A stretch of DNA of 64,000 bases, from NCBI GenBank assembly GCA_038882975.1, contig JAVZNE010000001.1, forward strand, positions 1 through 64,000, written 5' to 3'. The DNA comes from Candidatus Bathyarchaeia archaeon (GTDB lineage: Archaea; Thermoproteota; Bathyarchaeia; Bathyarchaeales; Bathycorpusculaceae). Below, piece by piece: positions 1-16,291 of this stretch (the first letter of the stretch is position 1; the number at the start of each line of letters is the position of its first letter). The translations under genes and the position numbers were made by a program. Below the pieces are notes generated by a model. The model did not search any database, was not told the origin of the DNA, and saw only the letters and a program-made list of their open reading frames with translations.

Positions 1-90
1 ATACGCTTACCCGGGGCTCTATCGCGGCTGGCCGCGCCCTTCTTCGGCGCTCAAGCCGAGCCATCCCCCAGACGGCGTGGCATGTCGGGC
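1..90 (-). rRNA. rrl: 23S rRNA, 5' end (gene continues beyond the left edge of the window)
   Basis: Reverse complement reads GCCGTCTGGGGGATGGCTCGGCTTGAGCGCCGAAGAAGGGCGCGGCCAGCCGCGATAGAGCCCCGGG, matching the conserved archaeal 23S 5' region (GGATGGCTCGGCT..CGCCGA.GAAGG.CG.G.CA.GC.GCGATA). The exact mature 5' end is approximate. Confidence 0.85.
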
Positions 91-274
91 ATTTTGCGGT
101 GTCTGTTTGACGTTGGCTGTGATTGGCATTTGGCAACTTATGGGCCTATGCATGGCTTCATTATGAGCTTAAAGGCTCACTCGCCCTTCACTCCACCACC
201 ACTGCGATGGGGAGCTGCATCATGCTCAATGGCTTAACGTAACGTAGCCAAAATAATTCTGAAGCGGCTTTCAA

Positions 275-1719: not shown

Positions 1720-1824
1720 TGCCGGGGGCGGGATTTGAGCCCGCGACCTCTGGCGTTGGGCGCTTAGCCCCCTTCGACTCCAGATTATGAGTCTGGCGCC
1801 CATTCCAGGCTAGGCTACCCCGGC
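1720..1824 (-). tRNA. tRNA-Met(CAT), elongator type, with a 30-nt non-canonical intron at position 45/46 (1748-1777)
   Basis: GCCGGGG acceptor and intact CCAGA-CTCATAA-TCTGG arm. The extra 30 nt form a BHB-like motif (CTGG/CCAG helix, AG^T and AG^G bulges); removal gives variable loop AGGTC. Confidence 0.88.
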
Positions 1825-1978
1825 TGATTTTCCGCTTTTGGTATGATTTTTGCTTGCTTATTTACGTTTCCTAAAGAACAGCAGCTTATCCCTTTCATAT
1901 ATGTCCAAATACAACTTCTAAATGGCGCTTTGGAACAAATAAAATACTCCAAGCTATAACACGCCCACCATAAAAATC

Positions 1979-2110
1979 TCAGGCTAAGGCACCGTGTGTG
2001 GGGCCGAGGCCGGGATTTGAACCCCTTTCTCTTGTTGGCTGCTGGCTCTGAACTTCCTCGTTTAACTTCTTGTCTGGCTTCTCGTCTCTCTCCTTGTCTT
2101 TTCCTTCCAT
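1979..2110 (-). pseudogene. int(N): N-terminal fragment of the split integrase of element A
   Basis: ATG at 2110 with GGAGG SD and TTTTAAA TATA box near 2157-2163. Reads MEGKDKERD...RERGSNPGLGPT through the att repeat, in frame with the 4573-5622 ORF once the att copies are joined. Confidence 0.85.
1997..2024. repeat. att site of element A (copy of the tRNA-His 3' end)
   Basis: TGTGGGGCCGAGGCCGGGATTTGAACCC is identical to 5659-5686. Confidence 0.95.
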
Positions 2111-2263
2111 CTTAGGGGTTCCTCCTTGCAGTCTCTATATTGTGGTGGCTTCTGCATTTAAAACTTATCTATGACTTGAGTTCAGAATATTGGCTGGGAG
2201 CTCTGGGGGGCTATTCGGCTTCTGGAACTTGGGGGTTCCTCCGACTGGCTCTCTGGGGCTCCC

Positions 2264-2587
2264 CTATTCGGCTGTTTTTATGAGTTGGAATTCAATGGCG
2301 TAAACGAATATTTCTGGCTGCCAGAAGCCATAAAGCCTAATCCATGTTGCCTTAAACTCTTCTAGGCTGTTGAAGCCTTCTGCTTTGGCTTCTTCTGGGG
2401 TTATGTCGCCTAGGCGCTGCTGCCAACATCTAACTATTTTGACGTAAGCCTTAGGGCCTTCCGAATAATCGTCCATGATTGGGTAGATGCAGCCTTCCTT
2501 CCATAGGGGCTTTAAGCGTCTGGTTTGAGTTTTGCGGCCTTCCAGGATGAGAAAAAGGAGGGGGCGTTTGAAGATAAGCGGCGGCAT
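2264..2587 (-). CDS. ASCH domain protein
   Basis: F....ILEGRKTQTRR signature and QRLGDITPEEAKAEGF motif. Confidence 0.85.
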   Translation of the reverse strand: MPPLIFKRPLLFLILEGRKTQTRRLKPLWKEGCIYPIMDDYSEGPKAYVKIVRCWQQRLGDITPEEAKAEGFNSLEEFKATWIRLYGFWQPEIFVYAIEFQLIKTAE

Positions 2588-2591
2588 GGGT

Positions 2592-2711
2592 TTATTCCCT
2601 TCCTGGGGGCGTTGGGAATCCGCAGCTTGGGCAAGCTTTGGGGCTTAAGCGTCTGATATATTGACGGCCGCAATAGGGGCATTTGGCATCTAGCCTAAAG
2701 GGGTCTGCCAT
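2592..2711 (-). CDS. 39-aa zinc-ribbon microprotein (absent from the ORF track)
   Basis: MADPFRLDAKCPYCGRQYIRRLSPKACPSCGFPTPPGRE, with two CxxC motifs and a GGAGG SD upstream. Confidence 0.65.
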   Translation of the reverse strand: MADPFRLDAKCPYCGRQYIRRLSPKACPSCGFPTPPGRE

Positions 2712-2944
2712 TTCGTGGGTTCCTCCTCGGTTAAAAGGCTTAAGGGTTGGCGCTATTTAAAATCAACGTCAGAATTGTTTAGAGCTGTCTGAATAAGGCT
2801 CAATATGCGGAGAAAATGGAGTTTTGGAAGCCTTTATTTTCGCCGGCCCCTCCCCCTAGGGTTTCCATTGGAAAATGTCAATTTTAGGGCCTCTGAAACT
2901 GCAAAATTGACCTACCCCCTCTAGGTTTTTAAGCATCTCTCCCC

Positions 2945-3118
2945 CTAGGTGTTGGCAGCTTTGACGTGTTCCGTTAAAAGGCTTAGGGTTTTGGCGTAAT
3001 CCATTAGGGCAGTGCGGAGGGTTTCAGATTCGCTTATTCCAAGCCTTTGGCTTATGCGTTTTAAAATCTCATGTTGCTGGCTGCTTAAGACGACTTTGAC
3101 GATGTGTTTTCTTGGCAT
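2945..3118 (-). CDS. 57-aa ribbon-helix-helix (CopG-like) regulator (absent from the ORF track)
   Basis: MPRKHIVKVVLSSQQHEILKRISQRLGISESETLRTALMDY: alternating beta strand followed by helix-GIS-helix. Confidence 0.75.
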   Translation of the reverse strand: MPRKHIVKVVLSSQQHEILKRISQRLGISESETLRTALMDYAKTLSLLTEHVKAANT

Positions 3119-3132
3119 TTTAGCCGTCGGCC

Positions 3133-3429
3133 CTAGTGTTTTGGCCCTTGTCTCGCCTGCAGTTTCTTACGGATTTTCTCCAGCTTCAGTTTGCCAGGGC
3201 TAGGGGCTGCGGCTCGCTTTTGTTTGGGCCATATTCTGGTGGCTGTTCTGAAACGCTCATAGCAGCGGGGACACTGCCAAAGGTGAATGAAAACTCGGAT
3301 TCGGCCCTTGCCGCGTTCCTCTTTGGGCGTAGCCTCCCATTCCTTAACTAGGTTGGCGGGTCTTTTGGCGATAGCGCCACAATAGGGGCATTGGGCTTCT
3401 TGTGCCAAGGCTGGCATTGGCTCTGTCAT
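3133..3429 (-). CDS. Zinc-ribbon protein resembling the Cren7 chromatin family
   Basis: CPYC...KEWEATPK...GRIRVFIHLWQCPRCYERFR resembles Cren7 [28 protein letters not shown]. Confidence 0.55.
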   Translation of the reverse strand: MTEPMPALAQEAQCPYCGAIAKRPANLVKEWEATPKEERGKGRIRVFIHLWQCPRCYERFRTATRIWPKQKRAAAPSPGKLKLEKIRKKLQARQGPKH

Positions 3430-3586
3430 TTGGCTTTCTCCTTCTTTGCAGCCTTTGCGGTCTTCTCATGATTTTGGCTTTCCAGGGAAAGACCTCCAAA
3501 AAATAAGATATGCTGGAATCAGTTTTTAGCAGTTCCGCCAAAATTTAAGTTTCTAGGTTTGAAAGGACAGAGAAAAAGGGGGATTT

Positions 3587-4015
3587 TTAACGGATTCTTT
3601 TAGAGCCTCTTTCCATGTCTGCTGTTGAGCCTCTTCCCGCTTGCAGTTCCTCGCTTTCCATGTCTTCTTCAAAATCAAAATCTGAATCCATGTTAGCCTC
3701 TGCCTCTGTGTCTGTTTCGGCTTCTCGGTGCTTTTTCCCTCGCTTAAGGTCTTCCGCCTTTATTCCTGGAAGTCCTTCGCCTGTGCTGTCTCTGAAGGCT
3801 TCCTCTTCAGGCTGCTGTTTTTTCTTTCGCCATATGCGCCTTCTTTGGTCTAGGGGCTCGTTGAAAACGCCTAGTTCTCGGTAAAGCACTGCTTTGGCGT
3901 ATTCAGAGGGCTTCATGTGGAACAGGGCTGCCACTTGCCTTAAGCGGTCTTCTGCCAAAGGGCCTATGCGGAAGGTGATTTGACGTCTTTTCCCATATTT
4001 GTCGGGCGGACTCAT
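3587..4015 (-). CDS. RHH-type DNA-binding protein with acidic C-terminal tail
   Basis: RQITFRIG...RLRQVAALFHMKPSEYAKAVL RHH pattern and a D/E-rich tail. The likely start is ATG at 4015, overlapping the upstream stop. Confidence 0.6.
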   Translation of the reverse strand: MSPPDKYGKRRQITFRIGPLAEDRLRQVAALFHMKPSEYAKAVLYRELGVFNEPLDQRRRIWRKKKQQPEEEAFRDSTGEGLPGIKAEDLKRGKKHREAETDTEAEANMDSDFDFEEDMESEELQAGRGSTADMERGSKRIR

Positions 4016-4383
4016 TTTTTCCATACCCCCATGTTTTGATGATTTTCTATGTTGTGGTTGCATGGTTTTTCTGAAAGCTGCTGCTTTGACGGTTTTATGA
4101 TGGATTCCGCTACAATGGAGTTTTGCAGTTCTGCAGCTGCTGGCGAATGAATAAAGTTAGCGTTTTCCGTCAATGTAGATGTTTTAGGTTTTCTTTTTCC
4201 ATACATGCGGGGCTTGATGCGTAAGAGTTTATGACATTGAGGACATCGGAAGGCACCATTATGAGGTACTGCTTCAGTCTTTGGGATTTTCCGCCCGCAG
4301 TTACCACACCAAAAACCGTTATCGTATATGCTGACTTTTGGAATCCATTTTTGGGCTTTGCTGTTCCACCGCCAGCGCTTCAT
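4012..4383 (-). CDS. Zinc-ribbon protein
   Basis: FWCGNCG...FRCPQCHKLLRIKPR. Confidence 0.65.
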   Translation of the reverse strand: MKRWRWNSKAQKWIPKVSIYDNGFWCGNCGRKIPKTEAVPHNGAFRCPQCHKLLRIKPRMYGKRKPKTSTLTENANFIHSPAAAELQNSIVAESIIKPSKQQLSEKPCNHNIENHQNMGVWKK

Positions 4384-4456
4384 AGATGGGCCTCCAAAGT
4401 TTTCTGATGGCCGTTAAGTTTGTCGCGGTCTTTTAGCCGTCTTTTTCTTTTCATTG

Positions 4457-4573
4457 TTAGGCCTCCGCTTCTAGGAAGGGGCAGACGGCGTGTTTTGTTA
4501 TGCATTTTCCGCCGAAGACGCAGGGTCCGTTTTTGCTGCAGTGGAAGGTTAGCTCAAGCTTTCTTTTCGCCAT
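4457..4573 (-). CDS. 38-aa Cys-rich microprotein (absent from the ORF track)
   Basis: MAKRKLELTFHCSKNGPCVFGGKCITKHAVCPFLEAEA; its ATG overlaps the integrase stop (TAATG). Confidence 0.5.
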   Translation of the reverse strand: MAKRKLELTFHCSKNGPCVFGGKCITKHAVCPFLEAEA

Positions 4574-5686
4574 TATGGCACCCACCTTGGCCGCTTAAAA
4601 AACATCGTGTCCGTTGTCTGCAGGGCTAGTTCCCAGCCTTCCGCTAGGAACCGGCTTATGGCTTCTTTGTCATGGATTCCGCAGTTTTCCACGTCAAAGC
4701 GTCTTGGCTGGTCTGGGTAAAGGTGGATGTATATCATGGTGGTTTCTAGGCTGCGGTGGCCTAGGCTTCTGCTGACCAGCGCCAAATCCTTGGTGGCATT
4801 ATATAGGCGGGTGGCAAAGGCATGGCGGTAGGCGTAAAGGCATAAGCCTCTAATGTTGTAGCCTGCGGCTGCAAGCTGCTTTTTAATCTGGTCCATGACG
4901 TGTTGGCAGTCTTTATAGTCCATGGGTTTTCCAGGCACATAGGGCTTGGTGAAAACATAGTTTTCCGGGCCTTTGTCCGCCGTATAGGTGCGCAGCATTT
5001 CTGCCAGCAGCGGGCTTATGGGAAGTTCCCTCTGCAAACATGCGCCGCTCCGCTTCTCTGAGCCTATTCGCACCAGTAAACGGTCAAAGTTGATGTCTTG
5101 TTTCCGCATTTGGAAGGGCTCGCAAGGCCTAGGCCCACACTCATAAAGCAGCCGGAAATAACAGCGCCACCTCAACTGTTTTGGAACTACTAGGCTGGCT
5201 TGAAGCGTGCTTTCCGGCGGCAGAACCGGCAGCGGCCTCCTCTTATCTCTTAAAACTTCCAATTTTTCTTTGATGCCGTTGGCTTCCCGGTACTTGTTAT
5301 AGGCGGCTATGAAGTTTTTCAATTGTCCTTTAAGCTCCGGCCTAGCAAGCACTCGGCTAACTGCTTTAACATCGTCTAGGTTTCCATGCACCATAACCGC
5401 CAGTCTAACCAAAATCTTCCTATAAGCCACAGCCACCCTTTCCTGCAACCTTCCAGAATCCACCCTCTGCTGCAAAAACACCGCAGTCCTAAAAATCCTC
5501 TGCAAAACTTCCCTAGGCAACCTCGCCTCCAAACTCTTCCAATATTCTAAACTGCGCTGTACCTGAAGCTCCCTCCCTATCTCCGCAAACCTCATGACAT
5601 TCTCAAAAACAGTGGTAGACACAGCGCCCGCCCATAAATCCCGGGCTAAGGCACCAATTGTGGGGCCGAGGCCGGGATTTGAACCC
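4573..5686 (-). CDS. int: int(C): catalytic portion of the split tyrosine integrase of element A
   Basis: Catalytic residues in GPRPCE, YAYRHAFA and LGHRSLETTMIY. The frame stays open upstream of the GTG at 5622 into the att/tRNA sequence. Confidence 0.9.
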
Positions 5687-5737
5687 GGGCGCCGGGCTCC
5701 ACAGGCCCGTAGGCTTCCAGGCTACCTCACCTCGGCC
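5661..5737 (-). tRNA. tRNA-His(GTG), target of two integrated elements
   Basis: G-1 plus GCCGAGG acceptor, CGGGC-CTGTGGA-GCCCG anticodon arm, C73 discriminator and encoded CCA. Confidence 0.95.
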
Positions 5738-5749
5738 ACTTTCATGGAC

Positions 5750-5785
5750 TTTTCCGTGACCTCGGCCGCTTTTCCGTAACCTCGA
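5750..5785. repeat. Tandem ~20-bp repeat next to the element B att site
   Basis: CTTTTCCGTGACCTCGGCCG followed by CTTTTCCGTAACCTCG; ACCTCG also occurs in the att core. Confidence 0.6.
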
Positions 5786-5797
5786 TACATCCTCAGC

Positions 5798-6994
5798 CTA
5801 TTTTCTTTTGCGGTATAGGCGGACACCGTTAACCACGTCGAAGGGTTCAAATCCTATTTCACCCAGTTTAACGGCCTCTTCAACGTTGTGGACGGCTTTG
5901 ATTATGAACTGGTCGTTTGGAAGGTTGTTGAAAAGGTTTTTGTCAAGTTGAATGTATATGAGTGTGTTGTCGATTTCCTTGTGGCCTAAGAACTCTTTGA
6001 CATGTAGAATGTCCTTCGTGTAGTGGTATTCCATTGTTGCGCGCCAATGCCTTAGAGTGTGGAAGGTTATGTTAAGCAGCCTTGGATTTTGCAGTTTAAA
6101 GGCCAAGCGTCTTCTAGCCCTGTAGAATATGGCTTTTAGGCTGTTTAAGGTGCAATCTCCAAACACGTATTGGCTTTTCCTAGGCAAAGCGTTAAGCATT
6201 CCTAGGAGTTTTCCGCTTAAGTTGTTGAAGATCCGTGGTAGGCTGCCTTTTTCAGGCGTGTTCAATATTATTATGCGTCTTTGAAAGTCTATGTCTGTCC
6301 ATTTGAGCCTTTTAGCTTCTCCGGCCCTCATGGCTGTTTCTTTAAGCAGTTGAAGGAATGTTGCCACTGTTTGGGGGCAGCCGGCTATAAGCTCGTCTAT
6401 TTCAGACTCCAAGGGTATGAAGGGGATTTTACGGGTCACTTGGCATTTCGGCTTCTCCCATTTTAACCCGTTGTATTTTAGGAAAAGCGTGTAGGCGTTG
6501 ATTATGTTTCTCCGCCTGTTAGGGCCCCATCCTTGTTCTTTAGCTAAAACTTCCTTTACGGTTTCCGGATTGAATAGGTTGGCGCCTTTAGCTGTTAAGG
6601 TTCTGAGGGCTCCAGTGTTTAGGCGTATGGTTTCAGCAGCATAGCCCTGCTTCTGCATCCACCATGCAAACTCAAAGATTTTTTCTTTTACATCTATCTC
6701 CCTTTGGGTTGTCTCCACAGCAGGGTTTCCATTTTGAGCTGTGGAGGCCAAGTTTTTCGCGCCTCTTGCCAAGGACACGCATACTTGGCGTTTAAAAGAT
6801 ATGTCGCTGTTCAAATTTAAAATCTGCCTTCCACCTTTACGTTTCGGGTTCTCTCTGAAGCGAAGCCCACAGTTTCGGCAAAGCCAACGTTGAACAGTTG
6901 AGCCGTCGCCTCGATAGCCTAAACCGTCGCGGTAAAGCTTTTCAGAGCCGCATTCAGGGCATTTAACGTTTTCCTTGGCAGAGGCCTCATACAA
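5798..6994 (-). CDS. int: Tyrosine integrase with N-terminal zinc ribbon (element B)
   Basis: CPECGS...CRNCG N-terminus; catalytic motifs TAMRAGE, FHTLRHW and LGHKEIDNTLIY. Confidence 0.92.
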   Translation of the reverse strand: MYEASAKENVKCPECGSEKLYRDGLGYRGDGSTVQRWLCRNCGLRFRENPKRKGGRQILNLNSDISFKRQVCVSLARGAKNLASTAQNGNPAVETTQREIDVKEKIFEFAWWMQKQGYAAETIRLNTGALRTLTAKGANLFNPETVKEVLAKEQGWGPNRRRNIINAYTLFLKYNGLKWEKPKCQVTRKIPFIPLESEIDELIAGCPQTVATFLQLLKETAMRAGEAKRLKWTDIDFQRRIIILNTPEKGSLPRIFNNLSGKLLGMLNALPRKSQYVFGDCTLNSLKAIFYRARRRLAFKLQNPRLLNITFHTLRHWRATMEYHYTKDILHVKEFLGHKEIDNTLIYIQLDKNLFNNLPNDQFIIKAVHNVEEAVKLGEIGFEPFDVVNGVRLYRKRK

Positions 6995-6995
6995 T

Positions 6996-7460
6996 TTAAG
7001 CCTTCAACCTCCATGGAATTGGCACTCTTTTCTTTAGGAATTTTATATCTGGACTTCCAACAACCTCGTAGCCTTGCTCTATAAGCTGCTTTATCTCTTC
7101 AAGTGACCCTGCTGGCTTAACAATGTATTCTTTAATAGGCTCTAGTAATCCGCGTTTTAGCTTTTCCAACTCGTTAATTTGGGCTTTAAGCTTAGCGATT
7201 TTCCGCATGTAAGCTTTAATGATAAGTTTAAGATTTTCGTTAACCCATTGAATTTGTAGTTGAGCTTCAGGACTTAGCTTGTTACGAGTTATTATGGCAT
7301 GGCATGAAGCGCAAAGCATGACGGTTATTTCTGGATCATAGCTGATATGGTGGACATCAAACATTTCCCTAGGCCCTCTAGCCCCACAAATAGCACATTC
7401 AAAAACGTTGGAGAACAAGAAGGAAACGACAGCCTTAGAGGGGCTAGAGGCCTCAGTCAT
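6996..7460 (-). CDS. HNH-like zinc-binding nuclease with coiled coil and integrase-like C-terminal module
   Basis: CAICG...DVHHISY...MLCASCH. Confidence 0.7.
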   Translation of the reverse strand: MTEASSPSKAVVSFLFSNVFECAICGARGPREMFDVHHISYDPEITVMLCASCHAIITRNKLSPEAQLQIQWVNENLKLIIKAYMRKIAKLKAQINELEKLKRGLLEPIKEYIVKPAGSLEEIKQLIEQGYEVVGSPDIKFLKKRVPIPWRLKA

Positions 7461-7466
7461 GACGGC

Positions 7467-7697
7467 TTAAACTCCCTTCAAAATTTTAGGGGGTCTTCCA
7501 GGCGGAAGTTTAGGCTTCTCTCTGGAAGGCTTATGGAGCAGGGGCATGAGGGCTAACAAAAGCTGGATTTCAGTAAGCAGCCGTTGGTTATGCCTGATAT
7601 AGTGAATGATTTTGTTGACTGTTGGATTCCGTTTTCGAGTTTTAATGAACTCTTCTATGGCTGTAAGCTCTTTCAGGGTGAAAATGTAGCTTCTCAT
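7467..7697 (-). CDS. Small basic protein, possible recombination-directionality or regulatory factor
   Basis: 76-aa K/R-rich ORF (MRSYIFT...PGRPPK) co-oriented upstream of HNH-int; function inferred from position only. Confidence 0.55.
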   Translation of the reverse strand: MRSYIFTLKELTAIEEFIKTRKRNPTVNKIIHYIRHNQRLLTEIQLLLALMPLLHKPSREKPKLPPGRPPKILKGV

Positions 7698-7760
7698 GGC
7701 TTGTTACCCCTTCTCTGCAAAAATTTTCGCTAAATTCCAACAGTTGGAATTTCTAGCCCC

Positions 7761-8027
7761 CTATTTTTCGCCTAGAATTTGCCTCGCTTTTTCAAGGGTT
7801 TTCTCAGCTTGTCGTCGTGCTTTAGCCCTTCCAAGACTTGTTAATTTAGCGTGAACTCTGCTTAAATTGTCCAATACTTGAAGCAGTAACATCATGTTTT
7901 TTCTATCGCCAACTTTTTCAAGCCGACTTAAAATTTTCTCGATTTTCTGCAGGGAGTCAGCTATCAATGAAGTCATTTTGGCATATTCGTAGGCGGAAAA
8001 TGAGGGTTTTTCGCTTTTGCCTTCCAT
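7761..8027 (-). CDS. Hypothetical helical protein
   Basis: 88-aa ORF in the element B operon. Confidence 0.55.
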   Translation of the reverse strand: MEGKSEKPSFSAYEYAKMTSLIADSLQKIEKILSRLEKVGDRKNMMLLLQVLDNLSRVHAKLTSLGRAKARRQAEKTLEKARQILGEK

Positions 8028-8152
8028 TTTCTCATGCGTCCTTTTATGCCTTAATCAGCACGCCATGGCCAATCAACGCCTTAAAGGGCTCAGAGCTTCC
8101 AACATCATCATTTTACATGGCATTCTATTCGCGAACCTTGATTTTCACTCCC

Positions 8153-8347
8153 TTATTTTTCCTTCGGTTTACGCGTTGAAGCCTTTGGAATTTCTCCTGG
8201 CGGTTGGGGCGTAGGCATCTCCTTTTTTGGCGGTTCAATGTAGCCGCCTGTCTGAGGGCCGCCCATTATGGGCGAAGCGCCAGCAAGTTTAGCCGGCTTG
8301 AAACGTCGGCTGTCAGGGCTTGAAGGAATCCTATCTTCTTCAGCCAT
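8153..8347 (-). CDS. Pro-rich hypothetical protein
   Basis: 64 aa, GAGGTG SD, start overlaps the upstream stop. Confidence 0.55.
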   Translation of the reverse strand: MAEEDRIPSSPDSRRFKPAKLAGASPIMGGPQTGGYIEPPKKEMPTPQPPGEIPKASTRKPKEK

Positions 8348-8523
8348 TATTTCTCACCTCTTTTCAGCTTGTTTGGCTTCGTTAGTTCCATATCAACACG
8401 GTTTAGTGAGGCTTTGGTTGGACTCATGCCATATTCGCCCGGTTCCCGGACTGTTGGCTCACCTTCAGTGTGCGGCTTATCATTGTCAAATGAAACCCAT
8501 GGCCTTTGCTTATTCTTCCCCAT
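8347..8523 (-). CDS. 58-aa hypothetical protein (absent from the ORF track)
   Basis: MGKNKQRPWVSFDNDKPH...RGEK with GAGGTG SD; fills the gap between coupled ORFs. Confidence 0.5.
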   Translation of the reverse strand: MGKNKQRPWVSFDNDKPHTEGEPTVREPGEYGMSPTKASLNRVDMELTKPNKLKRGEK

Positions 8524-8539
8524 GCTTTTTCACCTCCCC

Positions 8540-9157
8540 TCAAATTTTATACCTTTCAGCATACACTTTGACGGAGTAACCGCAGGAGCATTGAACGTTA
8601 AAGCCGTCTTTTATAAACGCGTAGACGTATTGCAGCTCAGACATGGTTCGGCATGATAGAATATTTTGAACGCCGCCAAACTGGCGCATGTCACACGTGA
8701 ATATTTTTTGGCAGTTTGGACATTGGATTTTCACCTCTGGGCCGTCGAAATCTATTAAGCCTTCACAATGGAAAACAATGTTTTTATTGTAAAATTCAAG
8801 TTTCTCGCGGATTTTTCTGGCTTTTGCCGCAAAATCTTCAACCTCTTTGTTTAAGGCTTCCATTTCGCTTTTAAGCTTGTCTACGGCTGATCGCCATTCC
8901 TTAAGCTCTGCTTCATAGTTGAAGCCTAAACTCTTTTCCAGGAAAAGCTTCAAAACGGTTAAATCAACGTCTTTAAACTGTAGCTTTTCTAATTCTCGCT
9001 GTAATTCCTCGATTTTGGCTTGCCTTTTTGAAAGTTCACTTTCTATAGAGGCAAATTGCCTCTGAAGTTCAACTTGCCTTTTTTGGAAAAGCTCTTCAAG
9101 CCTCTTCCGCTTTTCAGCCTCTAAACGTCTGATTTCCTCCATTTGCCGCCACCTCAC
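8540..9157 (-). CDS. Coiled-coil protein with C-terminal Cys (zinc) domain
   Basis: Long E/K/L heptad region, then CPNC...CSC. Confidence 0.7.
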   Translation of the reverse strand: MRWRQMEEIRRLEAEKRKRLEELFQKRQVELQRQFASIESELSKRQAKIEELQRELEKLQFKDVDLTVLKLFLEKSLGFNYEAELKEWRSAVDKLKSEMEALNKEVEDFAAKARKIREKLEFYNKNIVFHCEGLIDFDGPEVKIQCPNCQKIFTCDMRQFGGVQNILSCRTMSELQYVYAFIKDGFNVQCSCGYSVKVYAERYKI

Positions 9158-9408
9158 TACAATAAGCCTTTCTCTTTAAGCCTCTGTTGAAACTCTTCTT
9201 GAAGCCGGCGGTCTAGCCAGTATAGTTTAAGGCGGATGCTGGGCAATTCGATTTTAGGCAGCTTCTCCGCTAAAAACGCCAACAACTCCGCGGCTATTTT
9301 TTCCTGGTATGGTTTAAGCCGCCATTTGCTCTGCATTAAAGCTTCAAACTCCACGCGTTCGCGCTCTTCTTGTCGTCGCAGCATCTGCTCGATTTTTTTA
9401 TCTGTCAA
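9157..9408 (-). CDS. Hypothetical protein
   Basis: 83 aa, translationally coupled to the next ORF. Confidence 0.55.
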   Translation of the reverse strand: MTDKKIEQMLRRQEERERVEFEALMQSKWRLKPYQEKIAAELLAFLAEKLPKIELPSIRLKLYWLDRRLQEEFQQRLKEKGLL

Positions 9409-9520
9409 ACTTTACCACCACCTCACTTTTATTTTGGTTTGCGGGGCAACTGGGCTAAACCAATTGCCCATTCGCAAATTGAAGCCCAGAAAAACGTGAA
9501 TCGCGTAAAATCTCATTTTT

Positions 9521-9922
9521 CTAAGCCTCCAACTGTTTTATTTTCCAAATTTTCTTCTTTTTAATTGCCAAGAATGGGAGAACAGTTTCAATGAGGCTGT
9601 TTTTTTCAACTGGAATGTAGTTTTGGGTTAGGTAACGAGGATCCTGTAATATGTTGGTGATGGTTTTCTGAATTTTTGGAAGGTCTTTACTCAAAACCGT
9701 GAAGGCTGCAACGTCGGGGCCGAAAGCGAAGCTTTGCCTTGCAATCCATCGGCTGTTCTTATGATTAGTAATATATTGGTAGATGAGGCGGAAAAGTTTC
9801 CTTTGCCCTTCGGGCGCCAAGTTGTAGCCGACTTTGTAAAGGCATATTGTTATGTTGGCGAATTGAAGCCACCGTCTCACTTGAACCACCTTTTCCAGTT
9901 TCAATTCGGCTAGCTTGTTCAT
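9521..9922 (-). CDS. Hypothetical protein
   Basis: 133 aa, ATGA overlap with the helicase stop. Confidence 0.6.
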   Translation of the reverse strand: MNKLAELKLEKVVQVRRWLQFANITICLYKVGYNLAPEGQRKLFRLIYQYITNHKNSRWIARQSFAFGPDVAAFTVLSKDLPKIQKTITNILQDPRYLTQNYIPVEKNSLIETVLPFLAIKKKKIWKIKQLEA

Positions 9923-11610
9923 TTTGCAACCCCGAACTTGCCAACTTTAGGCACATCAACAAGCCAGCCGTCAGCCTTCAAAATGTCAACAACTTGTTTC
10001 GGCTCTAAGCCCAGCTCTTGAATTTTAGCATATAGGGCAAAAGCGTCTACCAACCCCTCGGAATCCTTATTTTCCGTAAGCCATTGGGTTAACGTTTCAA
10101 GGTTTTCTTTTAGTGTAGTTTGTGTATTTAGTGCAGTTTGTGAAGTTGGGGAGACGTAAGAGTTTTGGAGGCCTAAGCGTTCAGCAAGGTCCTGCACGGC
10201 TTTAAGTGTAAGGTAATATTCAACTCCGCGTCCAACTCTGCGTTTCTCAGTGAAACCTAAACGTTTAAGAGCGCGGCCCAGCCACTTGGTTGACAACCAT
10301 TTTTGCTCTTCATCGTAGGTTTGAGACATTGCCTCCTTGATCTGTCGGACAGAGAAGTAGCCATCTTGTGTTACAAGCTTTGTTAAAGTTTCAACTAGAA
10401 TGAATTCAGCCGTCTCCGTAATGTTTTCAACTTGTTTTTCTTGAGTTGTTCTGCTGGCGAGGTTAATCATTTTCTTTAAAAGGTTTAACTCTGGATTATA
10501 CTTGTCAAAGAAGGCTGCAAGGGTGAAAATAGGTTTCCACAGCTCCAAATCTCTAGCAGAAATGTTCATCTCCTTAACTTCACAAACTACACTTTGTGCA
10601 CAAACTACACTAAAATAGTCCACGAAAAGCATATAAAGCCCGCTGCGGATCTTCGGCCAAATTTGATCTGCAATATTGGGCTCCGCGTTTATGATTGCCC
10701 TATCCCTTCCACGCTTCATAATTATGGGAATACACCGTTCCTCTAGGACCTGCTCGATTCCCTCAATGTTGCAAACGATTTTTGGCGAGTAAACTTCAAA
10801 AGCCTCGGGAACAAGCCTTTCGCTACGTTTTTTCTCCGTGCGGTAAACTACTGCGCCTTTCTTGTAGCCTGTTAAAAGTAGATTGCGGAGCTCTTCAGCT
10901 CGCTCTTTACTCGCAAGCTTCTCGCTCTCGTCAAGAAGCAGGGTGCAACGGCCACTCTGTGTTAACCGATATAGGCTGGCTGTGCTAATATTGTTGGTGA
11001 AGATAGCGTTAAAGCAGAGGAGACTTGCAACCGTTAAAAGCTTGGTTTTCCCAGTCTGTTTTAGCCCGCCCACATAAACGTATGGATATGTGTTGAAAAG
11101 ATGGAAAAAGTATGTTCCAATTGTCCAGAGGGTAATGAAATCGTAAATGTCAGGATTTTCGAATTCTATGTATGTTTCATAGGCCTTTTTAACCATATTG
11201 TAAACTTCGGCGGGGTTGACGGATGCCCCTTCAAGCCAGGCTTTAACGCCCCCGAGAGGCCACCTGTTTTCAAAGTCAACAATGCGGTAGGCTAATCTCC
11301 AACGGAGAGGTTTAAGGGCGTCCTTATGCAGCGGAAATTTTTGCCTATCCGAAGTTATAAAAAATGGTAGCTCCTTTTCCTCTTGATTGCCTTCTTCGTC
11401 GACTGTTAAGCATGGAAGTGTAACGCCCACGACGGCTCGGCCGTCAATCACGTCTATGGCTGGATGCACTTTCCGCATTAAACCCTCAAATTTAGGCAGC
11501 ACCGTCAGTTTGCCAAGCCTAATGGCATTTCCAACCTCAATTTCAGCTTGAATCTGCTTTTCCGCCTTAACTTCAGCCTCAATTTTAGCCAACTCATCCA
11601 CAACGCTCAT
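9919..11610 (-). CDS. P-loop NTPase, primase-associated replicative helicase-like protein
   Basis: Walker A GLKQTGKT, Walker B LLLDESE, downstream R motif (ERCI) and a C-terminal wHTH-like region; coupled to the primase gene. Confidence 0.75.
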   Translation of the reverse strand: MSVVDELAKIEAEVKAEKQIQAEIEVGNAIRLGKLTVLPKFEGLMRKVHPAIDVIDGRAVVGVTLPCLTVDEEGNQEEKELPFFITSDRQKFPLHKDALKPLRWRLAYRIVDFENRWPLGGVKAWLEGASVNPAEVYNMVKKAYETYIEFENPDIYDFITLWTIGTYFFHLFNTYPYVYVGGLKQTGKTKLLTVASLLCFNAIFTNNISTASLYRLTQSGRCTLLLDESEKLASKERAEELRNLLLTGYKKGAVVYRTEKKRSERLVPEAFEVYSPKIVCNIEGIEQVLEERCIPIIMKRGRDRAIINAEPNIADQIWPKIRSGLYMLFVDYFSVVCAQSVVCEVKEMNISARDLELWKPIFTLAAFFDKYNPELNLLKKMINLASRTTQEKQVENITETAEFILVETLTKLVTQDGYFSVRQIKEAMSQTYDEEQKWLSTKWLGRALKRLGFTEKRRVGRGVEYYLTLKAVQDLAERLGLQNSYVSPTSQTALNTQTTLKENLETLTQWLTENKDSEGLVDAFALYAKIQELGLEPKQVVDILKADGWLVDVPKVGKFGVAK

Positions 11611-12611
11611 TTCACAACCTCCTTGATTACTTCGCGGATTAAACTGACTCCAGCTAGGGCGGAGCCTAGGCTTACACGGTTCTTATAATGGTAGTCGACA
11701 AGGGCAAGGCGGGCGGGCTTTTCCTCATCCCTTGTTAAATCGCAAACCCGCATAATTATCCGCTTTGCAGACTCGTAGGCTATGCCCCTCTTGACACAGA
11801 AGCCTAAGAAAGCCATCTCCAACCGGTTCCTTCGGCCCTTAACCCAATATCGGGCTAAGAATTTGGCTGCTTGCTCTTCCTCTTCGTTTGGCAAAGACAC
11901 CATAAACTCATACAGTTTTAAGGGAATTTGAACCGACTTCTCAGCCTTAAAACTCATTATCTTAGCTGTGTCGGCCTCTGAAAATGAAATTCCGCAACAT
12001 TCAAGCAGGGTTTCGTTTTGGATAGGTTGAAAAGTTTCAAAGTCAAGTAGACTGCTCCATTTACCGGCGGCTTGATGCTTGCCTAATGGAAGCTTTACAA
12101 AGTTGCCGTAGGGCCTTTCAGGTGTAAGTTCCGTTTGCTTTGGGAAAACCTCTACATCTTTAGGGTTTAACCCCGATAATTCCAAAATGCGAAGCCCAAG
12201 CCAACGGGCAACCTTAGCCGGTGTCGGAACATTGAAAAGAATCCAGATATGATAACTCGAATCGGGCCAACGGCTTGCCTCAAGCAAAACCGCATGATGC
12301 CAAATACGAGGTCTTTCAACACCGTCGGGCTCCTTTTTCTTTTCAAAACAAACCCGCAATATTTTATGGGCCGCAGCTTCTAGATCATTCAGCCTTTCAG
12401 AATCCAAGTCAAAGCATACATATTTAACTGTGTTGTCTAAGCCTAGCTGGTAGGCCCCGACGGTTAGCTTTCCCGTTAAATGATCCTGCAAAATATCCAA
12501 CGTTAATGGCTGTTCGACTTTAACGTAACTGCCATCATTTTTCTGTAGGCAGTGGCAATCTACGCGGTTGACGAAACACTTAAAAACCGCTTCAGCTAAA
12601 CAAATGGTCAT
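11607..12611 (-). CDS. Archaeo-eukaryotic primase (AEP, TOTE-primase-like)
   Basis: HLTGKLTVGAYQL, CFDLD (DxD), SYHIWILF, EVFPKQ and GNFVKLPLG motifs, plus a PriCT-like helical C-terminus. Confidence 0.85.
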   Translation of the reverse strand: MTICLAEAVFKCFVNRVDCHCLQKNDGSYVKVEQPLTLDILQDHLTGKLTVGAYQLGLDNTVKYVCFDLDSERLNDLEAAAHKILRVCFEKKKEPDGVERPRIWHHAVLLEASRWPDSSYHIWILFNVPTPAKVARWLGLRILELSGLNPKDVEVFPKQTELTPERPYGNFVKLPLGKHQAAGKWSSLLDFETFQPIQNETLLECCGISFSEADTAKIMSFKAEKSVQIPLKLYEFMVSLPNEEEEQAAKFLARYWVKGRRNRLEMAFLGFCVKRGIAYESAKRIIMRVCDLTRDEEKPARLALVDYHYKNRVSLGSALAGVSLIREVIKEVVK

Positions 12612-12757
12612 TTTAATGCCTTCTTAACGTCTCTACATGTTAAATCGCTGTGCTTTGGGCATTCCGCACAAACATTGGGCGGTATAGGCTTTCTCAAACC
12701 TATGCAACCTGCGATTGTGCTGTCCTCTTTAATTTTTTGTTTCTTAGTTTCACTCAT
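12608..12757 (-). CDS. 49-aa Cys-containing microprotein (absent from the ORF track)
   Basis: MSETKKQKIKEDSTIAGCIGLRKPIPPNVCAECPKHSDLTCRDVKKALK; its stop overlaps the primase ATG. Confidence 0.5.
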   Translation of the reverse strand: MSETKKQKIKEDSTIAGCIGLRKPIPPNVCAECPKHSDLTCRDVKKALK

Positions 12758-12847
12758 TAGTTTCACTCTTCTCTTCAACAATATGGTCCAAAAAACCGCG
12801 AAAACCGCTGAGTTTTGCGGCGGGCGTGTAACTTAAAGTGTAACCTT

Positions 12848-13246
12848 TCATATTTTCCCTTCCCTCTGCAACCTAACCAGCCGCCGCTCCTCTTTTGTCA
12901 AAAAGCTGGGCAAAGGCTCAGCAAACCAGGCGTGTTTCTCGCGGAAATCGTTCCACGACCCGCATTTTTGGCATCTGGCCCTAAATTTTCCCTTAGTTAG
13001 CTGATAGTCAAAACTTTGGAGATCATTGTTCCCACACCGACACCGCAAAATGCCTAATTCATCGTATTTTTGTGCCAAGCGAAACGTGAACCAAGCGTCT
13101 CTAAGCAGCCCAAAGCTCCAAAGAGGCACATTGTCATGGTTTAACGGCCTCTTTTTAGGCCGCCCCGGCCCTCCCGTCGTGCCCCTAACAAAACGCCCAC
13201 GCCCATTACGCTTATACTCTCGACTTTCTTCAACGATTTTATTCAT
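12848..13246 (-). CDS. Protein with N-terminal GRF..G..GGPGRPK motif and zinc ribbon
   Basis: RNGRGRFVRGTTGGPGRPKK, then CRCG...CQKCG. Confidence 0.65.
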   Translation of the reverse strand: MNKIVEESREYKRNGRGRFVRGTTGGPGRPKKRPLNHDNVPLWSFGLLRDAWFTFRLAQKYDELGILRCRCGNNDLQSFDYQLTKGKFRARCQKCGSWNDFREKHAWFAEPLPSFLTKEERRLVRLQREGKI

Positions 13247-13430
13247 GCTTCACCACATCTCTTGGCGGTTTCTCGGTGATATACAGCTTAAACGGGGCTT
13301 TCTTATCAAACACAATTTTAACGCTGCTGAAATTTCTAATATAGTCGATGACCGTGGCTATGTCCCGATACTTACCATACAAAACAACCGCGTAAAATAA
13401 TTCCATTTCTGTTAACTCCTGCTCTTTCAT
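13239..13430 (-). CDS. Small hypothetical protein, first gene of the leftward operon
   Basis: 63 aa with GGAG SD; divergent from the wHTH gene. Confidence 0.55.
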   Translation of the reverse strand: MKEQELTEMELFYAVVLYGKYRDIATVIDYIRNFSSVKIVFDKKAPFKLYITEKPPRDVVKHE

Positions 13431-13521
13431 ATTACTCCCTTTTTGGGTTTACTGTCACACTAGGTTTATCATTAAACTAAAAATATATAAGGTTTACGTT
13501 ATACTAAGTATTGGAATAAAC

Positions 13522-14181
13522 TTGACAGACAAGTTCGACATCTTAATATTCATTTATGAGGGGCAAAGGGAAAAAGGTCATGTAAGCTGGTCGGATCTGC
13601 TGGGATATTTTGTAGAGGCAGCCCCGCCCTTTCGTTATATCTCAAAACGCACGTTACATTTATGGCTTCTTGAATTAATAAAAGAGGGACTTGTTGAAAA
13701 AATCATTGATAAAGAAACGTTGAAGCCTTGTTATAGGACCACGGAAAAAGGCTGTGATGTTGCTCGGAAAAAGAATGTTGAAAAGGAATGGATAGGAGAA
13801 ATTCTAAAAGCTACAGAAAAAGTCTTCCGCGAATTTCTTGAAAGAGAAGAAGCAATGATCGATTTCTATTCAACCCAATCCACCCTCTTATATGAAGCTT
13901 GGAGAGCAATTTTAAAACATGAATTTCATATGTCAGAAACAGAGTTAGTCGCAATTTATAATTTATTTCAGTTAACAACAAATGAGCGGTTTCCCTACTT
14001 AAGTTTCTATTTTTGGTTGAAAAACCGCGAATTTGAAAAATTGAAACTAGAAGACATTAAAGATAAAATAGGTAAGGCAGTAAAATTAGGCATATACCCA
14101 AACGAAAAATTCCTTTTAGAGGATTGGAAAGTTTTACAAAGTTACCGTGAAAAAATAAGGGCAGCCCTAAAACAAAAATGA
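13522..14181 (+). CDS. Winged-helix transcriptional regulator, putative element repressor
   Basis: ISKRTLHLWLLELIKEGLVEK...YRTTEKG wHTH; divergent from the replication operon across an AT-rich spacer. Confidence 0.7.
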   Translation: MTDKFDILIFIYEGQREKGHVSWSDLLGYFVEAAPPFRYISKRTLHLWLLELIKEGLVEKIIDKETLKPCYRTTEKGCDVARKKNVEKEWIGEILKATEKVFREFLEREEAMIDFYSTQSTLLYEAWRAILKHEFHMSETELVAIYNLFQLTTNERFPYLSFYFWLKNREFEKLKLEDIKDKIGKAVKLGIYPNEKFLLEDWKVLQSYREKIRAALKQK

Positions 14182-14214
14182 TTAAAAGGAAGATTTGGCG
14201 GCTGAAGTGCGGCT

Positions 14215-14646
14215 TCATTTTTCATACCATGAATCTAAAATTTTGAGAAGTTTTTGGGTTATGGGGCTGGAATGGTTTAATGTCACTAGGTAGCCGCGTT
14301 TTCCAAAACGTGAAACCAAAACTATTCCGGCAGCTTGGAGCCTTCCGATAATCTGTCTAACCCTATGGTAGTCGTTTACGCCTATGGCTCGTGCAATTTG
14401 GCCCAATGATGAGCCGCTGCCAAGGCTTAAATAACGTATAACCTTCACCATTTTCGGGTTTTGCAGGTAATAGCTTAAATCATGCTTTTCAATTTCGTAA
14501 AAACTTTGGTGTTCAAGAAACTTTTTTAGGGCGTAACGTGCAGCCTCTTCAACGCTTAAACGTTTAAACCTTGCAAAACGCTCCAGACACGCATATAATT
14601 CAGGCGGCAACTTGATAATATAGACGCCTTCACCCCGGTTTAACAA
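14215..14646 (-). CDS. RHH plus wHTH regulator
   Basis: YIIKLPPELYACLERFAR..LSVEEAA and SLGQIARAIG...RLQAAGIV. Confidence 0.65.
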   Translation of the reverse strand: MLNRGEGVYIIKLPPELYACLERFARFKRLSVEEAARYALKKFLEHQSFYEIEKHDLSYYLQNPKMVKVIRYLSLGSGSSLGQIARAIGVNDYHRVRQIIGRLQAAGIVLVSRFGKRGYLVTLNHSSPITQKLLKILDSWYEK

Positions 14647-14652
14647 AGCCTT

Positions 14653-14813
14653 TCAGCCCTGCTGCAGCTCCTTGATAAAATCTTCCAAATATCGGGCTAA
14701 AAACAAGCAGTTTTCCGCCCGCGTCAAGTCGCCTTGGGCCTTAAACTCTGCAGCCTTTACGTGTAATGCCTTAATTTTCTCTTTCAACTTTTTTAGGTTG
14801 AATCCATATTCCA
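14653..14813 (-). CDS. Small hypothetical protein
   Basis: MEYGFNLKKLKEKIK...; start uncertain. Confidence 0.4.
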
Positions 14814-14947
14814 TGCTCATTGACATACACCCGTTTCTCTTTAACCGCCAACTCAAACTCTAAACGCTTAATTTTTCTCCTCAACTTCAAATTTTGATAT
14901 GTTAAAAAAGCAGCCAATATTGTTAAAACTAAATGTAAAGTGTCCAT
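14771..14947 (-). CDS. Small single-TM protein with basic tail
   Basis: MDTLHLVLTILAAFLTYQNLKLRRKIKRLE; GAGGTG SD upstream. Confidence 0.5.
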   Translation of the reverse strand: MDTLHLVLTILAAFLTYQNLKLRRKIKRLEFELAVKEKRVYVNEHGIWIQPKKVEREN

Positions 14948-14957
14948 CAACCCACCT

Positions 14958-15182
14958 CTAAGCCCAAAGGGCCAAAGTTTTCGTTGCCTTGCAATAATAG
15001 GCTTCAAACTCGGCTTGGCCTGTTTGGCCTTGCAAAAGCTGGTTTATTTTAGCCTTAATCTGCTCTACAAGCCCGCAGAAAACCACATTCGCGTAGTTTA
15101 TAGGATAAAATCGTTTGTCCTTCAAGGGCCGCCAATATAACAGCCAACGCTGTGGGCTGCGTTGCAAAACAATCCTCATCAA
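14958..15182 (-). CDS. Hypothetical protein
   Basis: 74 aa, coupled to the upstream ORF. Confidence 0.5.
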   Translation of the reverse strand: MMRIVLQRSPQRWLLYWRPLKDKRFYPINYANVVFCGLVEQIKAKINQLLQGQTGQAEFEAYYCKATKTLALWA

Positions 15183-15484
15183 CCAGTCACCTCAAGAAGG
15201 CTTAGCTGAACCGTTTTAGGTTCCTCTTCAACATGCCCCTCAAAAATACGCGGCAGCCTATAGCCCGTCATGTTTGGTAATTCAAACCTTATCCGGTAGC
15301 CCATATGCCTAACCGTGAAGCCCCAGCCGTTGTTTAGGCAAACCAGGACACGGTAAGCCGCCTTGACTTTTTCAACAAAACGCTCGTCATCCATTAACCA
15401 TTCAACTGAAGGCTCAACGGCTGCAAAAGTTATTCTGTCCAAGCGGATGTATCTGCGGCCCCTAACCGTCACCACATCAGTCAT
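15179..15484 (-). CDS. Hypothetical protein
   Basis: 101 aa with AGGTGA SD. Confidence 0.6.
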   Translation of the reverse strand: MTDVVTVRGRRYIRLDRITFAAVEPSVEWLMDDERFVEKVKAAYRVLVCLNNGWGFTVRHMGYRIRFELPNMTGYRLPRIFEGHVEEEPKTVQLSLLEVTG

Positions 15485-15515
15485 TTCGTTTTCACCTGTA
15501 TATACAAGTGCTACT

Positions 15516-15553
15516 CGAAATATTTAAATATTTCGGTGAATACAAGTATTCAC
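15516..15553. promoter_or_regulatory. Divergent promoter/operator with two adjacent palindromes
   Basis: Perfect 20-bp palindrome CGAAATATTTAAATATTTCG (15516-15535) abuts the inverted repeat GTGAATAC-AA-GTATTCAC (15536-15553). Confidence 0.7.
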
Positions 15554-15584
15554 GAAGAATTTAAAGGGAGTGTGGTGAATACAT

Positions 15585-15746
15585 ATGAGTATGCCTCGTA
15601 CAAAAGACTTTGTGAAGTTGCGCAAATCTGGAAACAGTCTAGTTATAACTATCCCAAAAGAAATTTTGGAAACGTTAGGCTGGAAAGTTGAAGACGAACT
15701 ATATATTGAAGCGAAAAACGGGACATTAATAGTGAAAAAAGCCTAG
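15585..15746 (+). CDS. AbrB/MazE/SpoVT-family regulator, 53 aa (absent from the ORF track)
   Basis: KLRKSGNSLVITIPKEILETLGWKVEDEL signature. Confidence 0.85.
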   Translation: MSMPRTKDFVKLRKSGNSLVITIPKEILETLGWKVEDELYIEAKNGTLIVKKA

Positions 15747-16240
15747 CATTTTTGCGCCAACGGGCAATCCTATTGCAATTGAATACTCTAACGTTAGAGT
15801 AGCCATTTTTACGCTTTTAGCCTAGCCTAAACTCGTTAAAAATGCCTAGTTGTGTCCATGCTCTTGTTTCAGTCGAGGGTATCTTCCACATTGCCCCTTT
15901 TTTGAAAAGGGCTCAATTTTGCAGCCCCTCATCATCGCAGCCCATGTTTAAAAACTAATGTGTATTAGACGTCAGAAACGTCATGACGTCATCCAACACC
16001 ATTCTGGACATCATAACTTAAGACAAGCCCACAATTTGAACAGCAAACCTCACCAGTCAAACCATCACGGACAGCTTTCCTGGAGCCGCAAACTGGACAA
16101 GGCCTCTTAAGCTCTATTTCCACTCGAATATAATGGCTAACATCTTTATCCGGCGGCTCAACCATTTTAAAGACTCCTTAAACGTTGCACAAAGAAAAAT
16201 GGGGTTTTCTGCTGGGGAGACTTCCCCAAAAGGAGTTAGA

Positions 16241-16257
16241 TACCTCACCTCGGCCAC
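16241..16257. repeat. att site of element B (copy of the tRNA-His 5' end)
   Basis: Identical to 5723-5739. Confidence 0.9.
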
Positions 16258-16275
16258 GTTTTTCCTGACCTCGCC

Positions 16276-16291
16276 TACTTTAAACGTTTCA
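16276..16291 (-). promoter_or_regulatory. Probable native tRNA-His promoter (BRE/TATA), now displaced
   Basis: Minus strand GAAACGTTTAAAGT lies about 29 nt upstream of the tRNA 5' fragment. Confidence 0.6.

Follow-up and report, generated by a model that had tools for sequence, protein, structure and literature searches.

A 10.5-kb integrative element in the 5' end of a Bathyarchaeia tRNA-His gene parts the gene from its promoter and may transcribe it by read-through

An integrative element of about 10.5 kb lies on the 5' side of the tRNA-His gene in the DNA analysed here, has parted this gene from its native promoter, and may supply its transcription instead. The stretch as a whole (the window) comprises 64,000 nucleotides (positions 1–64,000 of the forward strand of contig JAVZNE010000001.1, assembly GCA_038882975.1) from a Candidatus Bathyarchaeia archaeon represented by a hot-spring metagenome-assembled genome (MAG) of 1.42 Mb in 15 contigs, 94.7% complete; the element occupies 5740–16240 plus one 17-nt core. 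Archaeal tRNA genes rely on upstream promoters composed of a transcription factor B recognition element (BRE) and a TATA box, and integration into tRNA genes almost always spares these promoters, because elements replace the 3' end of the gene. Integration at the 5' end raises the question of who transcribes the essential tRNA afterwards. A preliminary description of this stretch, made from its letters alone, had proposed both such an insertion and read-through of tRNA-His from the integrase transcript.

The intact tRNA-His(GTG) gene is located on the minus strand at 5661–5737 (5661–5736 according to ARAGORN; 53 bits with the Rfam tRNA model), and direct reading of the sequence gives both G-1 (5737) and CCA as encoded. 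It is the only tRNA-His copy found in the 15 contigs of the assembly. An exact 17-nt direct repeat, TACCTCACCTCGGCCAC, is present at 5723–5739, the tRNA-proximal attachment (att) core, and at 16241–16257, the distal core. On the tRNA strand the repeat reads GTG followed by GCCGAGGTGAGGTA and covers tRNA positions −3 to +14, taking in two further nucleotides, G-1 and 14 nt of the mature tRNA. The distal copy is thus an orphan 5' fragment of tRNA-His, co-oriented with the minus-strand tRNA-His gene and upstream of it, as is characteristic of a displaced fragment. Conservative site-specific recombination has put the element into the first 14 nt of tRNA-His and the 3 nt upstream of it, and the element provides a fresh copy of the tRNA 5' end.

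A search with the right flank, which covered 40 relatives, showed that two genomes from this genus, G005 (94% identity over 1160 nt) and G004 (80%), each have an empty site. At both sites the intact tRNA-His is followed, on its upstream (5') side, by about 20 nt, a CTTAAAAG-type box and then the conserved flank; the stretch conserved at the empty sites starts near position 16279 of the window, and the intact tRNA-His is joined directly to the flank that starts at 16258. These sites verify the element boundary at 16257/16258 as well as the identity of the displaced promoter. The left flank of the empty site is the tRNA itself, the 3' side of which is occupied in the window by a second element, A, described below.

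The tRNA-proximal junction was also found outside this assembly. We used sequencing data in the form of assembled (Logan) contigs from hot-spring metagenomes, two runs labelled 'metatranscriptomic WGS' (whole-genome sequencing; probably DNA) and one RNA-Seq run, with 6% of the sampled words; element stretches without cover in data sets X2, X7 and X16 carry no evidential weight. A contig of X1 spans the junction (5713–7464), and near-identical junctions of integrase, adjacent arm and tRNA-His are present in the independent MAGs of loci L050 and L078 (the last 60 aa of the integrase are 97% identical). At two attP-like loci (L033, L016), the integrase is followed by a spacer, a 14-nt tRNA fragment and then unrelated DNA, with the same core boundary.

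To compare promoters, we used a matrix of 13 columns trained by expectation maximization on the 80-nt upstream regions of the 38 other ARAGORN tRNAs of the genome (consensus GAAACCTTTAAAA). In 5000 random 80-nt genomic windows the median score was 2.2 bits, 5% reached 9 bits and just 0.3% reached 13 bits. The displaced native BRE/TATA box of tRNA-His, GAAACGTTTAAAG (16278–16290, minus strand), scores 12.9 bits, has an equivalent at the empty sites of G005 and G004, and ends 23 nt upstream of the equivalent of +1; with the usual archaeal spacing between TATA box and start, the native promoter would start at about G-1. In the 80 nt upstream of the intact tRNA-His, no site exceeds 1.6 bits, and the one with this score overlaps the stop codon of the integrase, whereas the other 38 tRNAs score 5.7–14.3 bits, so that tRNA-His is the lowest of 39; the matrix is biased toward its 38 training tRNAs by construction, although the contrast is large all the same. 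No BRE/TATA match was found with this matrix 12–66 nt upstream of the rebuilt gene. We also considered a promoter within integrase B and rejected it: in the 400 nt upstream of tRNA-His the best site, 191 nt away and inside the integrase, reaches just 6.3 bits, which is unremarkable.

The preliminary description had read the site in much the same way, with 5'-end integration, a displaced box at the distal att, no TATA box at the intact gene and a distal tRNA fragment of 15 nt, which is essentially right if G-1 is counted with the 14 nt of mature tRNA. Its further expectations, that a search for a second tRNA-His would find none and that upstream DNA at empty sites would match the flank at 16258 and its box, agree with the assembly and with the G005 and G004 sites, respectively.

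The displaced promoter now points into the orphan fragment and, beyond it, the element's non-coding right end (16166–16240, minus strand). This right end carries a run of five T residues on the minus strand (16195–16199), about 45 nt downstream of that fragment, and is conserved, with two T5 runs, in a related element at the same site in G011 (L067). The T5 tract is likely to insulate the displaced promoter. We looked for a hairpin terminator at the right end and discarded it; the fold is no more stable than those of shuffled sequences (z = −0.39), so the T5 tract alone is notable. This bears on the idea that the native promoter drives one transcript through the whole 10.5-kb array down to tRNA-His. 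The promoter is indeed intact at 12.9 bits, and the open reading frames (ORFs) of the element lie almost uniformly on the tRNA strand; however, such a transcript would meet the conserved T5 tract almost at once, one gene (13522–14181) lies on the opposite strand, and 10.5 kb with many internal promoter-like sites make a single transcript unlikely, so that we regard this explanation as highly improbable.

Since archaeal tRNAs need a BRE/TATA promoter, the source of transcription should be either read-through from the element or something in the arm between integrase and tRNA. The stop codon of integrase B (5798–5800) lies about 60 nt (5738–5797) upstream of G-1, and the two genes are co-oriented, as the preliminary description had stated. 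We favour, at roughly even confidence, read-through from the element as the source of the rebuilt tRNA-His. In this scheme the gene, having no recognisable promoter of its own, would form the 3' tail of one or more minus-strand element transcripts ending in integrase B, from which tRNA-His would be freed by RNase P and 3' processing. Precise excision would reunite tRNA-His with its native promoter; the preliminary description had said as much, and conservative excision would indeed give the layout of the empty sites.

The distribution of T runs is consistent with read-through. No T5 run is present on the sense strand between 7060, which lies upstream of the integrase start, and the tRNA's 3' end, the longest T run in the 61-nt spacer is 2, and runs of four or more T residues are absent from all 17 related integrase–tRNA spacers, whereas, in the 60-nt stretches that follow 976 long ORFs of the same genome, T4 or longer runs occur in 51% and T5 or longer runs in 21%; as the 17 spacers are themselves related, the contrast is indicative rather than a statistical test. 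A weak hint comes from a 1045-nt contig of the RNA-Seq run X16, which bridges the 3' part of a related integrase, tRNA-His and 332 nt beyond, with DNA carry-over possible.

Several points weigh against this reading. Contigs cannot reveal transcription start sites, ends, strand or transcripts, and a matrix from one genome under-scores TATA boxes that have no BRE, such as ATTAAAAAT, which receives only 4.7 bits. In genome G017 (L079, contig C9, 1420–1577), a decayed integrase B-type element consists of the last 18 nt of the integrase and the arm of about 60 nt, so that the arm is kept before the only tRNA-His found there while the rest of the integrase has been lost. Within 300 nt there is no site of at least 7.5 bits. 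This argues that an integrase transcript is not indispensable in that genome. The remnant sits downstream of a flavodoxin-like host gene, and read-through from this co-oriented upstream gene is possible. Sister elements with a canonical BRE/TATA box in the spacer (the element on contig C101 of G031, an element on contig C8 of the window's own genome, G000, and locus L036, with 14.8 bits) place element-borne promoters within the repertoire of the family. Finally, the arm of the window element contains ACGGAAAAG at the position of the native ACGTTTAAAG, and the stretch of the arm homologous to the native leader could act as a weak promoter.

The arm (5740–5797, minus strand) deserves closer description on this account. 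It contains two tandem core-like repeats, CGAGGT(T/C)ACGGAAAAG, at 5749–5764 and 5769–5784, with a tandem CGAGGTNACGGAAAAG motif; no canonical BRE/TATA box is present in it, and its longest T run is 2. Locally it is homologous to the native leader at 19 of 23 positions (AAAGCGGCCGAGGTCACGGAAAA aligned with AAAGTAGGCGAGGTCA-GGAAAA), a score reached by none of 2000 shuffles, and by this alignment the arm appears to be a copy of the promoter-proximal region of tRNA-His with a degenerate TATA box and about 9 nt inserted. The leader together with the tRNA folds with z = −3.4, dominated by the tRNA itself, from which nothing is drawn.

On this basis the arm may carry a weak, non-canonical promoter, in which ACGGAAAAG (about −41 to −33) recruits TBP and TFB and a leader of about 10 nt is made, independently of the integrase. 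Besides the homology to the native leader and the retention of the arm in G017, this possibility draws on a graded series of boxes at the equivalent position in sister elements and native loci (TTTAAAAG, TTAAAAAG, ATAAAAAG, ATAAAAG, TGAAAAG, GGTAAAG and GGAAAAG) and on the G031 element, where a 34-nt att repeat is followed by the element's own canonical GAAAGTTTAAAAG. Yet the best site at −70 to −8 in the arm scores −5.8 bits, far under every functional tRNA promoter in the genome, two T positions conserved at 77–91% in the matrix are G or absent in the arm, and the core-adjacent block is common to elements with different tRNA targets and is better explained as an integrase-binding site. We hold an arm promoter to be a serious rival to read-through, possible but on the doubtful side.

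The end of the integrase gene itself was considered as well. Sequences that encode RKRK and the stop codon, such as GAAACGTAAATGA, reach up to 8.5 bits in relatives (1.6 bits in the window) and may be weak promoter sites in some of them. As a specific promoter adaptation this was rejected, because the same C-terminus occurs in L030 and L039, which face tRNA 3' ends.

The displacement might also be of no consequence, if a second tRNA-His is encoded in the unassembled part of about 5% or if other cells keep the empty site. With a MAG that is 94.7% complete and split into 15 contigs, a second gene in the missing part is possible, which likewise counts against read-through; more than one tRNA-His match was found in 4 of the 27 relatives with a match (G013, G023, G030 and G031), although one of the two in G031 is an alternative assembly of the same site, and in the G031 assembly an empty site (on C12) occurs beside an occupied one (on contig C101). 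Against this, tRNA-His matches were found in 27 of the 41 genomes searched and 23 of these 27 contain exactly one, every cell that bears the element still requires tRNA-His, and the promoter-less junction is kept across many genomes. Moreover, the joint 5739–16258, which would mark the empty site of this very strain, is absent among the 15 joints listed for X1, X2, X7 and X16. We consider this explanation improbable.

The integration mode is not confined to the window. Homologues of integrase B (E ≤ 1e-20) are present in 156 of the 201 genomes sampled from the order, and we read the contexts of the 30 best-scoring loci, the window's included. At 16 loci a co-oriented tRNA starts 33–86 nt past the integrase stop (His in most cases, Val and Phe in others; a contig end cuts one of them); for two of these (L032, L034) ARAGORN gives Tyr, Thr or Cys according to its settings, while their 5' end reads like tRNA-His. 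Three loci have only a tRNA 5' fragment and are attP-like, two face a tRNA 3' end, three abut the start of a ParA/MinD-like gene, three are cut by contig ends or N runs and three have an unclear context. In the search of genome contigs, tRNA-His follows the integrase directly at 7 of 9 Bathyarchaeia loci. From these contexts, tRNA 5' ends are the habitual target of the integrase B family.

Members of the family differ in whether the spacer carries a promoter. Within the integrase B clade (at least 60% identity), the window and L014, L043–L046, L048 and L050 have no canonical spacer box, and L051 is borderline, with an A-rich GAAAAAGTAAAAA of 7.4 bits. The occupied site on contig C101 of G031 (L064; 1–4198) holds an element of about 4.1 kb, the integrase of which shares 56% identity with integrase B; the empty site lies on C12 (L065) of the same MAG, which points to a polymorphic site and a probably active element. 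On C8 of the window's own genome, an integrase (4053–5192) precedes tRNA-Ser(GCT) with a spacer box of 13.7 bits; no distal repeat was found for it in the assembly, and the element probably runs off the contig start. In all, this 1.4-Mb genome has six matches to the integrase B family on contigs C3 and C8, several of them abutting tRNAs; the match at C3:85402-86343 faces tRNA-Asn and has an internal stop, and that at C3:96616-97830 faces tRNA-Leu(TAG). Locus L078 (G018:C9) belongs to a genome of a different genus (g6), with tRNA-His followed by a T7 run and without element A; the C-terminus of integrase B and the arm shared by L078 and L050 suggest recent horizontal spread.

Two other arrangements were seen in the survey. 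At L022, L023 and L035, what follows the integrase is not a tRNA but a gene for a ParA/MinD-like P-loop ATPase (VKIAVSGKGGVGKT), with its start codon about 45–60 nt past the integrase end, which suggests either the 5' end of a protein gene as an alternative target or a cargo gene. At L070, L072, L074 and L077 (G007, G003, G013 and G024), tRNA-His is preceded by the end of an ORF reading ...LFRKRK-stop and then ATGATTAAAAATGGTCGAGGCTACC; these ORFs are called integrase only by eye, from their C-terminal residues. With occupants of this type counted, most sampled tRNA-His loci of the lineage hold some type of element.

The closest known counterparts of the window element are the pTN3-like (SSV-type, 'suicidal') integrases of Thermococcales, for example those of pTN3 and of TKV4 at tRNA-Leu, reportedly described by Krupovic and Bamford in 2008. 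As in the window, their attB lies in the 5' part of the tRNA, the tRNA is parted from its promoter and the promoter faces into the element. In these elements, however, attP lies inside the integrase ORF, which is split into Int(N) and Int(C) upon integration, whereas the window integrase is intact at 398 aa, with the core 58 nt past its stop codon. In pTN3 the shared stretch measures 41 bp, in the window 17 bp at the extreme 5' end, the hosts are Thermococcales and Bathyarchaeia, respectively, and integrase B differs further by an N-terminal IS1-type zinc ribbon. The window element thus works like a pTN3-type insertion yet stands outside that family, set apart by its architecture.

According to Badel et al. 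2021 (PMC8371274), the rebuilt tRNA of pTN3-like elements is expressed from the integrase promoter, and the pTN3-like integrases are termed 'unique in archaea' for their 5' targeting; in the S2 Fig legend of Cossu et al. 2017 (PMC5495485) the tRNA is said to be 'separated from its original promoter'. The mechanism put forward in the preliminary description is therefore already in print for another family. For the window, its claim of read-through from the integrase transcript stands as plausible, given the lack of an oligo-T terminator and the pTN3 precedent; strict dependence on that transcript does not fare as well, being opposed by the leader copy in the arm, the TATA boxes of sister elements and the G017 deletion.

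Two further comparisons can be drawn. In the Islander data (Hudson, Lau & Williams 2015, PMC4383910, Table 1), 159 of 3919 islands have a displaced 5' tDNA fragment and share with the window the combination of an integrase, an intact tDNA and, upstream, a 5' fragment in the same orientation, the window core being placed right at the 5' end (−3 to +14, acceptor and D stem); the word 'promoter' does not occur in that paper. Krupovic et al. 2019 (PMC6563490) place CalSub-E1 of Ca. Caldiarchaeum subterraneum in the 5'-distal region of tRNA-Ser; it is reported as the sole 5'-distal case, the other thaumarchaeal tRNA integrations being 3'-distal and 5'-distal events being termed considerably rarer, and promoters find no mention there. 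The att sites of that study are short, with a median of 17 bp, like the 17 nt of the window, a likeness by description only. A literature search yielded no description of the Bathyarchaeia integrase B family or of its 5' targeting, supplementary tables not being covered, and a paper on Bathyarchaeia viruses (PMC10848311) touches on integrases only briefly. The novelty lies in a second, non-suicidal integrase family, widespread in the order, with promoter-bearing and promoter-less members.

As regards gene content, all ORFs of the element (those of at least 75 aa outside other ORFs) lie on the tRNA strand, with the one exception given above. Integrase B (5798–6994, minus strand, as are all the following) is an intact tyrosine recombinase (Pfam PF00589, 55.6 bits, cut-off 27.1; PHROG integrase) in which the residues of the R...HxxR...Y box are present as read by eye and the N-terminal ribbon matches a zinc-binding domain of NCBIfam (30.2 bits, cut-off 28); the stop codon of the ORF before it adjoins the integrase start. 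Neither integrase of the window reaches the cut-off of 220 bits for archaeal XerA (NCBIfam NF040815), integrase B scoring 69.6 bits and integrase A 71.7 bits. A 154-aa Cys-rich protein (6996–7460) has weak HNH-endonuclease-like matches (PHROG, E = 1e-4) and no Pfam match. A protein of 563 aa (9919–11610) belongs to no known family in Pfam, PHROG or NCBIfam; from the Walker A-like (GKT) and Walker B-like (LLLDE) motifs seen by eye, it is likely to be a replicative NTPase that partners the primase encoded at 11607–12611, a protein with an archaeo-eukaryotic primase (prim-pol) domain (Pfam PF22548, 81.3 bits; PHROG DNA primase, 1.6e-20). A putative CopG/MarR-like regulator (14215–14646; weak, PHROG E = 1e-4) and a 58-aa TFIIB-type zinc-ribbon protein (15989–16165; Pfam PF08271, 33.1 bits, cut-off 29) lie toward the right, promoter-distal end, where the latter is the first gene. 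Along the direction of transcription the order is thus zinc ribbon, small proteins with weak CopG/MarR-like matches, primase, 563-aa protein, several small ORFs and integrase B.

Element A, of 3.7 kb (1982–5685), occupies the 3' side of the same tRNA-His. Its integrase A (4573–5622, minus strand; Pfam PF00589, 84.6 bits) starts 38 nt past the tRNA 3' end, and it also encodes an ASCH-domain protein (2264–2587) and small zinc-finger proteins. Its distal att site (1982–2024) is a 43-nt repeat of 5643–5685 with 3 mismatches and corresponds to the last 25 nt of the tRNA-His gene (5661–5685, CCA included) plus 18 nt downstream, so that only about 37 nt of the gene (5686–5722) are free of either att repeat. 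A native downstream T5 run (near 1965–1975, minus strand) is TTT in the copy borne by element A, and owing to this change tRNA-His transcripts might run into integrase A. A joint from 1745 to 5661, considered as the empty site of element A, proved to be a T-arm cross-match between tRNA-His and the tRNA-Met at 1720–1824. The latter is an intron-containing tRNA on the minus strand (CAT anticodon by eye; Rfam 53.8 bits) that default ARAGORN missed, with a promoter match of 9.1 bits at 1858–1870. At its edge (1–92, minus strand), the contig opens inside the 5' end of an archaeal large-subunit rRNA gene (Rfam RF02540, edge-cut).

For archaea, the 2021 review (PMC8371274) knows one family that integrates in this way, the split pTN3-like one, and the window adds a second with an intact integrase, from an uncultured and ecologically abundant class, which precedes tRNA-His in many genomes. 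In practical terms, tRNA-His loci are frequent assembly break points in Bathyarchaeia MAGs. The promoter-bearing and promoter-less arms, the polymorphism in G031 and the deletion in G017 offer natural comparisons for the dependence of the tRNA on element transcription. As a broader conjecture, which we consider rather unlikely as a whole, a widespread Bathyarchaeia integrase family might habitually capture the transcription of essential single-copy tRNAs, with promoter-less variants making the sole tRNA-His the last cistron of the integrase operon and a conserved oligo-T tract insulating the stranded promoter. The host would then be unable to shut the element off without losing tRNA-His, an inability to silence the element that the preliminary description had also proposed and that is speculation at this stage. 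If true, this would be addiction via promoter displacement rather than via a toxin.

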